From the IMG/VR virus record IMGVR_UViG_3300020045_001235, positions 1 to 53,118 of that record: a stretch of DNA of 53,118 nucleotides, one strand, 5' to 3'. The notes beneath the pieces were generated by a model that saw nothing but the letters and a program-made list of their open reading frames with translations, made no database searches and was not told the DNA's origin. Shown here in pieces: positions 44,979 through 45,307 of the stretch. Every line of letters starts with the position of its first letter. Position 1 is the stretch's first letter. Position numbers and translations under genes: made by a program. The DNA comes from a virus (taxonomy: Duplodnaviria; Caudoviricetes).

Positions 44979-45307
44979 GTTGGTAGCCCGGACAGTTTTC
45001 CCGCTGCCTGCTGACTCCTTTCGTGAGAAGTTAGCGGCTACCAACATCGAAGCGTCCTCTTGGTGAGGCAATTCGCGGCTTTGCAAACTTGCGTACCGGA
45101 TACCGCGCTCCGCTTCGATGTTGCCACTCCTTACGGGAGTGAATCGACCACTTACCATATTACCTCGTGGTCCAAGGGTTAAACCTTAAGGAGGTATCAA
45201 CTTCGTAACGCCGCCCGATATGGTGCGGGGTCCAACAAGTCAAGTGCGCTGAGTTTACAAGACAATAAACAACCGGAAAGTTAAGTTAAAAGTCCTCAAC
45301 GCACTTG
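44979..45307 (-). ncRNA. putative structured ncRNA array of four domains between the tRNA genes
   Basis: Long-range helices of 13, 4+7+6, 13 and 10 bp plus internal hairpins, found by eye. Confidence 0.55.

Follow-up and report, generated by a model that had tools for sequence, protein, structure and literature searches.

The 53,118-bp virus record IMGVR_UViG_3300020045_001235 (Duplodnaviria; Caudoviricetes), estimated to be 94% complete and analysed here over its full length (the window), carries on its minus strand an RNA cassette in which a 175-amino-acid (aa) gene is followed, in order, by a tRNA-like element, its encoded CCA, a 347-nt spacer (44969-45315), a gene for tRNA-Thr(UGU) and a Lar-like gene. 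The gaps at both ends are short, with 14 nt between the end of the 175-aa gene at 45389 and the tRNA-like element and 17 nt between the CCA of tRNA-Thr and the start codon of the Lar-like gene, and the cassette is embedded in a compact minus-strand operon. An initial annotation of this DNA had read the spacer as a noncoding RNA (ncRNA) made of four back-to-back domains between two tRNA genes. Folding analysis predicts that the spacer is a genuine, strand-specific, strongly structured RNA segment, well beyond what chance would give.

On the minus strand, the spacer has a predicted minimum free energy (MFE) of -134.4 kcal/mol (z = -6.06), and none of 100 dinucleotide shuffles folded as well; the corresponding value for the plus strand is -123.8 kcal/mol (z = -4.06). 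When the genome was used as its own control, with 347-nt segments taken every 75 nt on both strands (n = 1,408) and corrected for GC content, the segment over the spacer ranked first of 1,408 at -3.6 to -3.7 standard deviations (sd), and the next unrelated segment of the genome reached only -2.8 sd. The 53 kb contain eight perfect inverted repeats with arms of 10 bp or more and loops of up to 100 nt, where our own rough arithmetic, rather than any tool, would expect about five by chance. Two of the eight lie inside the spacer, which holds the sole perfect 13-bp inverted repeat of the genome, the closing helix of domain D3.

The initial annotation had also argued from G-U pairs that the minus strand is the folded one, and the counts bear this out, with 12 G-U pairs among 115 on the minus strand and 6 among 110 on the plus strand. 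Mirroring the minus-strand structure onto the plus strand costs 14.4 kcal/mol (-120.0 versus -134.4 kcal/mol). Most of this asymmetry comes from D1, the perfect stems of D3 and D4 being strand-neutral, and the strand favoured by the fold is that of both tRNA elements and of all neighbouring genes.

Table 1. Positions in the window of the RNA cassette, its predicted domains and the surrounding genes, with representative anticodon-arm-less elements from other viral contigs (P, base-pairing probability)
Feature	Position	Strand	Description
tRNA-like element without anticodon arm	45316-45374	minus	59 nt; Rfam tRNA 46.4 bits (gathering score 29)
Encoded CCA of tRNA-like element	45313-45315	minus	paired in the base of D1 (CCAA/UUGG)
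D1	45232-45315	minus	hairpin of ~20 bp in three segments including a 13-bp helix; AU-rich apical part
D2	45143-45231	minus	weakly defined; holds the ACCUCCUUA 9-mer and the GAGG Shine-Dalgarno and AUG of ORF61
Hairpin	45124-45142	minus	7 bp, CGUAA loop; P = 0.93; z = -3.52 (minus), -3.62 (plus)
D3	45042-45123	minus	perfect 13-bp closing helix, three-way junction, two inner hairpins
D4	44979-45045	minus	perfect 10-bp helix around robust inner hairpin 45038-45006
Long-range helix CCCGC/GCGGG	45229-45225 / 45004-45000	minus	P = 0.97; also in MFE and centroid structures
ORF61	44973-45158	minus	61 codons; ATG with GAGG 4 nt upstream; stop 4 nt before tRNA-Thr
tRNA-Thr (anticodon UGU)	44895-44968	minus	ARAGORN; Rfam 57.7 bits; body 44968-44898, encoded CCA to 44895
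SNF2-type helicase	47974-49554	minus	neighbour of the RNA cassette
334-aa protein		minus	no function assigned; listed between SNF2-type helicase and 63-aa protein
Small proteins of 63, 78 and 175 aa		minus	no function assigned; listed directly before the RNA cassette
Lar-like restriction-alleviation protein	44554-44877	minus	weak match; next after tRNA-Thr
111-aa protein		minus	between Lar-like gene and primase/helicase
DUF927 primase/helicase	40948-44052	minus	1034 aa
Anticodon-arm-less class members	L014:1385-1443; L016:5512-5569; L018:1134-1191; L020:6221-6279; L021:5265-5321		viral contigs; further members among L053-L106

The complementary arms of the long helices drawn in the initial annotation are present in the sequence at the stated coordinates (Table 1). 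The 13-nt arms of D1 (45241-45253 and 45295-45307) are 92% complementary, the mismatch being a G-U pair on the minus strand, and this domain, in a region with a GC content of 0.38-0.42 (45230-45319), has z scores of -4.92 (minus) and -3.30 (plus) and pairing probabilities of 0.98-0.99. The arms of D3 (45042-45054 and 45111-45123; 13 nt) are 100% complementary and pair at P = 0.99, the inner helices of this domain reaching only about 0.6. The small hairpin, first placed at 45125-45141, was recovered one nucleotide wider on each side, and D4 has its two 10-nt arms (44979-44988 and 45036-45045; 100% complementary) and an inner hairpin at P = 0.97-0.98. The outer arms of D2 (45146-45160 and 45218-45232; 15 nt) are likewise present and 80% complementary; its helices have probabilities of 0.61-0.72 and its positional entropy, 1.19, is the highest of the spacer.

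How these helices are arranged is less clear-cut than their presence. D3 and D4 do compete for four nucleotides (45042-45045), as had been proposed, and in the full-length ensemble the 13-bp helix of D3 takes these nucleotides and the 10-bp helix of D4 is not formed, with the predicted CCCGC/GCGGG helix closing D2, the hairpin, D3 and part of D4 into one multiloop. Since the D4 helix is displaced in the presence of the long-range helix, the four-domain layout is one of two competing architectures; the long-range closure is a competing alternative modelled from one sequence, and a single sequence cannot choose between the two.

The 9-mer ACCUCCUUA in D2 (45195-45187, minus) is unique in the genome on either strand, and we take it to be the anti-Shine-Dalgarno sequence of the 16S rRNA 3' terminus. 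AAGGAGU, of the complementary type, occurs in two hairpin arms (45126-45132 and 45014-45020), and part of the 9-mer pairs with the GAGG ahead of ORF61. The 9-mer could be an anti-Shine-Dalgarno mimic or a chance occurrence, about 0.4 copies being expected per genome.

Both flanks of the spacer are tRNA-type structures, although only one of the two tRNA genes placed there by the initial annotation is a tRNA gene in the ordinary sense. The downstream flank is tRNA-Thr, whereas the upstream flank lacks an anticodon arm, 17 model positions being replaced by 4 nt in the Rfam alignment, and was not called by ARAGORN at default settings, which found tRNA-Thr alone. The element retains a 7-bp acceptor stem (GCGGGUG/CAUCCGC), a 4-bp D stem (GUUC/GAAU), a 5-bp T stem (GUGGG/CCCAC), the T-loop UUCGAAU and a discriminator U at 45316. 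Because it has no anticodon stem-loop it would be unable to decode, and we therefore refer to it as tRNA-like rather than as a tRNA. Its acceptor end, with G1:C72, C2:G71, G3:C70, U73 and CCA, carries what is presumably the acceptor identity set of bacterial tRNA-Gly.

Elements of this shape recur in other viruses. A pattern comprised of a GGTAGARY D-loop/D-stem segment, a linker of 4-15 nt and a GGTTCGAATCC T-loop matched 64 loci in viral contigs (10 with a narrower version), or 56 unique sequences including that of this phage. A stem test that required a correctly spaced acceptor stem with six or more of its seven pairs and a T stem with all five, which a match would pass by chance at a rate that we put, by rough arithmetic, at about 0.5%, was passed by 27 of the 56 (55-61 nt long), namely the phage's own element and 26 others. 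The acceptor stems of the 27 are diverse, and in the alignment all seven acceptor pairs vary on both sides, a covariation that is partly circular since pairing was the selection criterion. The D stem was not selected on; it is 92.5% paired, and one of its pairs shows eight replacements of C-G by U-A. Independently of the stem test, Rfam recognizes short tRNAs (57-61 nt) at six of the first ten loci. Given this recurring shape and the paired D stem, the upstream flank is not a random deletion product but a member of a class. G3:U70, the alanine identity mark, is found in 7 of the 27 elements, and 17 of the 27 have ordinary tRNAs within 1.5 kb on the same strand.

Full-text literature searches, which did not extend to supplements, found no description of gene-encoded anticodon-arm-less tRNA-like elements in phages. 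The lone "anticodon-less" match, in a defence review, concerns a nuclease-trimmed tRNA (PMC13434031), and PMC5389517 deals with other irregular tRNAs; supplementary files listing irregular phage tRNAs might hold relevant cases.

The closest relative of the phage's element lies in L021, where its D and T arms are nearly identical and its acceptor stem is different; in this locus (L021:5179-5620, minus), two consensus-like promoters and a ~90-nt leader hairpin precede the element, and 16 nt past it lies a tRNA labelled tRNA-Stop by ARAGORN, which may be a suppressor. The nearest parallel to the spacer arrangement is found in a high-GC viral contig, in which about 1.1 kb of structured sequence (L016:5570-6665) follows a tRNA-like element with G3:U70. 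The first 351 nt of this stretch fold with z = -4.76 and it holds degenerate tRNA-type matches (30-31 bits), so that it could be an irregular tRNA array. Across the class, the 200 nt downstream of the element could be scored for 26 members and reach z <= -2.5 in seven of them, two of these stretches containing tRNAs, and the phage's own downstream segment is the extreme (z = -4.59). As only some downstream stretches are structured and none of the loci compared (L013-L022) resembles the spacer, the element and such a spacer are not consistently associated.

The spacer itself belongs to no described RNA family. Rfam 15 at gathering score returned only the two tRNA matches in the whole 53 kb; at E <= 10 nothing relevant beyond these was displayed for 900 nt, an output that masked three weaker same-clan matches overlapping the tRNA hits, and on the spacer alone the best match was HOTAIR_3 at 11.4 bits, which is noise. 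The initial annotation had likewise been unable to assign a family, and the search came back empty even at this permissive threshold, which on present models excludes GOLLD, ROOL, group I and group II introns, RNase P RNA, transfer-messenger RNA (tmRNA), 6S RNA, riboswitches and residual tRNAs.

Several identities were considered individually and rejected. ARAGORN proposes a permuted tmRNA with the tag ANFSRKESAGSGKTVRATNA* only when its threshold is lowered to 70%, and none at default. That call uses the T arm of the tRNA-like element, yet its proposed 5' acceptor strand pairs, by eye, at about 4 of 7 positions against 7 of 7 for the element's own 5' strand, and the element is a closed unit with G3:C70 rather than the G3:U70 expected of a tmRNA. 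The sequence GUCCGGGCU resembles by eye what we take to be the P4 region of RNase P RNA, but no RNase P model matched at E <= 10. A group I intron was set aside for want of an Rfam match at the same threshold and because the joined flanks give no continuous gene, and decayed tRNAs because no tRNA model matched the spacer there. Relaxed ARAGORN settings gave only an intron-containing "tRNA-Pro" and an armless "mt-tRNA", to which we attach no weight, and a host repeat or miniature inverted-repeat transposable element was dismissed because multi-copy matches are absent in genome contigs. Since the defining features fail for tRNA, tmRNA and every Rfam family, the spacer RNA is a member of none of them. 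A phage-encoded tmRNA was seen elsewhere, at L022:9096-9454 (Rfam 126.4 bits), in a part of a 111-kb viral contig that is rich in tRNAs.

Searches for relatives of the spacer gave a similar picture. Against 50,697 phage records, blastn at a distant setting returned only tRNA-Thr-type matches, an exact 23-mer had no match in viral contigs and the helix pattern of D3 had none in genome contigs. A 17-mer from D1 matched genome contigs 30 times, always in single copy, in unrelated taxa and with no extension beyond 17-21 nt, which is consistent with chance. Neither blastn nor nhmmer found the spacer in loci L002-L022, and blastn alone did not find it when L023-L052 were added, a comparison that did not take in L053-L107. 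The phage as a whole is an orphan too. Its nearest cultured phages by large terminase (TerL) are the Roseobacter phages CRP-901 and CRP-902, at 41-42% identity. Relatives of the primase in viral loci (L002 and L003) are 26-29% identical and lack tRNAs; a metagenome search with the primase led only to the same distant contig, and genome contigs gave one fragment of 25% identity. TerL relatives (L004-L011) reach 58% identity and have a different replication module, with no tRNAs in the five records searched for them and no primase homologue in the four searched. No relatives of the Lar-like or the 334-aa neighbour were found in viral contigs, and the small neighbour proteins at 44554-44877, 45389-45916, 45932-46168 and 46198-46389 each form a one-member cluster at 90% identity among about 15 billion proteins. 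With all four being singletons, the early region of this phage appears very isolated.

We tentatively favour the explanation that the spacer gives rise to a stable ncRNA, released by tRNA processing, that would act through its fold, serving as a decoy or scaffold for a protein. Because tRNA-type structures with an encoded CCA stand on both sides of it, host tRNA-processing enzymes should release the spacer. The cassette would be transcribed within the minus-strand early/replication transcript and RNase P would cut 5' of each tRNA-type structure, the 5' end of tRNA-Thr setting the 3' end of the spacer RNA. The CCA end of the tRNA-like element would be matured by endonuclease and exonuclease trimming, or by RNase III cutting the ~20-bp helix of D1, leaving over a discrete RNA of about 345 nt. 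The product would be a stable ncRNA working via its fold, most plausibly as a protein-binding decoy or scaffold, and not a message. We infer the transcription, processing, stability and trans function of this RNA, and the decoy or scaffold function is the least supported part of the explanation. No promoter-like site was found within the cassette, and the sole terminator-like match there, inside the tRNA-Thr gene at the D-arm, we read as spurious. Since phage genomes are compact, a 347-nt stretch that folds better than any other in the genome and is placed precisely between two RNase P substrates is probably not filler. The ncRNA proposed by the initial annotation is thereby a reasonable candidate, a strand-specific, structured segment of about 345 nt bounded by tRNA-type structures, but with a contested layout and a D2 that is not significant.

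A number of observations weigh against this explanation. The evidence for the fold is the thermodynamics of one sequence together with its context. D2 folds no better than shuffled sequence (z = -0.16 on the minus strand and -1.39 on the plus strand; 78 of 200 shuffles as good), so that of the nested helices proposed for it the outer arms stand and their significance does not. The closing helices of D3 and D4 are purely Watson-Crick and carry no strand information; their perfection is also unlike the G-U-containing helices of old RNA families, and D4 alone folds better on the plus strand (z = -3.91, versus -2.81 on the minus strand). The encoded CCA of the tRNA-like element is paired into the base helix of D1 (45315-45312 / 45235-45232; P = 0.99), which would hinder simple 3' maturation. 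No homologue of the spacer RNA, the flanking genes or the early region was found in any collection searched. Among loci carrying related elements, L013-L022 share no sequence with the spacer by blastn or nhmmer (L053-L106 were not compared), and a structured downstream region accompanies the element in only some class loci, several of these regions containing tRNAs.

The nearest functional analogues of the candidate spacer RNA are RNA C and RNA D of phage T4 (stable RNA "species 1 and 2"), which are about 120-140 nt long, have their genes within the T4 tRNA cluster and mature together with the tRNAs. Like the candidate, they are phage-encoded small stable RNAs without an assigned function; in a published account they appear as "RNAs of yet unknown functions" (PMC9697503). 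The spacer RNA differs in being 347 nt long and multi-domain, with one flank that lacks an anticodon arm. GOLLD and ROOL are large structured RNAs of unassigned function that often lie beside tRNA genes in phages and prophages, whereas the spacer has no Rfam match and is about half their size or less. In the MALAT1-mascRNA pair and the tRNA-microRNA-encoded RNAs (TMERs) of murid herpesvirus 68, a non-decoding tRNA-like element lies beside a structured RNA and the two are separated by tRNA-processing enzymes. The order here is the same, a tRNA-like element and then hairpins. These systems, however, use eukaryotic polymerases and RNase Z and their released hairpins feed microRNA pathways, and we know of no microRNA-type tRNA-like punctuation in bacteriophages; the likeness is one of logic and not of descent. 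Bacteria also release functional RNAs from tRNA precursors, such as the 3' external transcribed spacer (3'ETS) of leuZ and internal spacers of tRNA operons, but these are short sponges with little structure that act on known small RNAs. By contrast, the phage spacer is long and extensively folded, and no target complementary to it was identified. Finally, a tRNA-like part without an anticodon arm beside a structured RNA with a short open frame recalls tmRNA. The cassette differs from it in that its tRNA-like part stands apart as a closed unit of the minihelix type, with G3:C70 and U73, and that the ORF61 frame has its own Shine-Dalgarno sequence and AUG.

If the spacer is released as a stable RNA, it would be a new, family-less case beside T4 RNA C/D, GOLLD and ROOL, and one in which a bacterial virus uses tRNA-like "punctuation" to make a product that is not a tRNA. 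A more far-reaching version, which we regard as doubtful, makes the cassette a phage counterpart of the tRNA-like-punctuated viral ncRNAs, in which the mini-tRNA and the folded RNA together decoy a host factor. The non-decoding mini-tRNA with its tRNA-Gly-type end would, with tRNA-Thr, direct the release of a new class of large RNA; the mini-tRNA might be chargeable, and the target might be, for example, a tRNA-targeting or RNA-sensing defence protein. The Lar-like anti-restriction gene lies in the same early block as the cassette. As part of this doubtful version, the phage's element and the other anticodon-arm-less elements would form an undescribed family of phage mini-tRNAs. Whatever its role, the class, which recurs in at least 26 other viral contigs with intact and highly variable acceptor stems, may matter more than the spacer itself.

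The alternative that survives best, unlikely in our judgement but a live rival, is that the spacer is the structured mRNA of a small gene. ORF61, a 61-codon open reading frame that overlaps D3 and D4, would encode a basic, hydrophilic protein of 61 aa, D1 would be a leader hairpin serving as an RNase III site or stabiliser, and UACCUC/GAGGUA pairing would regulate the ribosome-binding site. The GAGG and ATG (Table 1) count for this gene and against the ncRNA, as does its codon score of 0.139, which lies above all off-frame gene chunks; of 2,076 null ORFs generated with a Markov model of the spacer (-0.077 +/- 0.098), only 1.3% score at least as high. This score is within the range of real small genes (0.10-0.36) and close to those of the Lar-like (0.102), 63-aa (0.141) and 111-aa (0.170) neighbours, yet it sits at only the 14th percentile of real-gene chunks. 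A position-specific base model favours frame 0 by 6-8 nats, but the GC content at second codon positions is 0.54, compared with 0.29-0.46 in real genes, and five of the seven Arg codons are disfavoured (negative score). The ribosome-binding site falls in D2, the only part lacking a stable fold, and phage DNA is mostly coding; the body of the frame, on the other hand, contains the genome's only perfect 13-bp helix as well as the perfect 10-bp helix (z = -3.34), which is unusual for coding sequence, and its stop codon nearly abuts the tRNA.

For the ORF61 protein, a word-index search found no homologues, and HMMER against 1.84 billion representatives gave only four weak matches (E = 3.6e-6 to 8e-4), each with a protein of 518-1231 aa. 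Its exact sequence is missing from a protein collection in which the 63-, 78-, 107- and 175-aa neighbours are present, and it follows that the gene caller of the source did not call ORF61, at least with this start. The lack of homologues is nevertheless weak evidence, since the four neighbours are themselves singletons. Protein-level conservation of this frame, which the initial annotation had named as one of the points on which an ncRNA could fail, was not found in the databases searched; the Shine-Dalgarno sequence and a codon use in the low range of real genes nevertheless keep the frame in play.

Somewhat less probable is a purely cis-acting processing and stability module that would cut the polycistronic early transcript and protect the mRNA ends, the excised spacer being functionless. 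RNase III sites in T7 early RNA cut the transcript in this way, the cassette stands between two gene blocks of one tightly spaced operon, and the ~20-bp helix of D1 is of the size cut by RNase III, which is consistent with such a module, as is the fact that the spacer sequence is not conserved in the other phage loci compared (L002-L022). A length of 347 nt with at least four robust helices nevertheless far exceeds the needs of a processing site in a phage that is otherwise compact, and related tRNA-like elements usually lack such a spacer.

We consider it very unlikely that the spacer acts as DNA, whether as a replication origin, a single-strand initiation signal or a palindromic protein site by the primase/helicase gene. 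The spacer does lie 0.9 kb upstream of the DUF927 primase/helicase, the arms of D3 and D4 are perfect inverted repeats with no mismatch or G-U pair, D4 folds slightly better on the plus strand and the centre of D1 is AT-richer. However, no strongly AT-rich unwinding element was found (lowest GC 0.38 over 60 nt), there are no iterons, only two-copy 7-mers and one 9-mer at about chance level, and cumulative GC skew has its turning point near 40 kb, where the genes switch strand, rather than at 45 kb. Without iterons and with the skew turning elsewhere, a replication origin is not supported; the perfect palindromes and the AT-richer D1 centre leave it a small probability. The 14.4 kcal/mol strand asymmetry in favour of the transcribed strand and the position of the spacer exactly between two tRNA-type genes also argue against a DNA element.

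The least probable alternative is that a once functional RNA gene (tmRNA, intron or tRNA cluster) has degenerated into a relic with no function today, a reading for which the permissive tmRNA call, the tmRNAs that phages such as that of L022 carry in tRNA clusters and the degenerate tRNA matches of L016 could be cited, but which has against it the default ARAGORN result, the poorly paired acceptor with G3:C70, the absence of any tRNA, tmRNA, intron or RNase P match at E <= 10 on the 347 nt, and the expectation that decay should erode, not keep, perfect 13-bp and 10-bp helices.

The wider genome is organized in two transcription blocks. Structural genes occupy roughly 3.5 to 40 kb of the plus strand, and the minus strand carries the early and replication genes, the cassette among them, between 53 and 40.9 kb. 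The open reading frames scanned, in two sets of ten and nine, included no recognizable integrase. Between the genes for the primase/helicase and the 111-aa protein, a gap of 156 nt (44053-44208) contains a perfect 10-bp inverted repeat (44098-44107 / 44179-44188), and a promoter-like site lies by this gap at 44225-44197. Further out on the minus strand, 51449-51985 encodes an Rv2179c-like 3'-5' exoribonuclease (E = 1e-46), which might be relevant to RNA 3'-end trimming, and 433-909 encodes a pentapeptide-repeat protein. On the plus strand, a GIY-YIG/NUMOD3 homing-endonuclease-like gene (3516-4487) is found just upstream of the terminase region.

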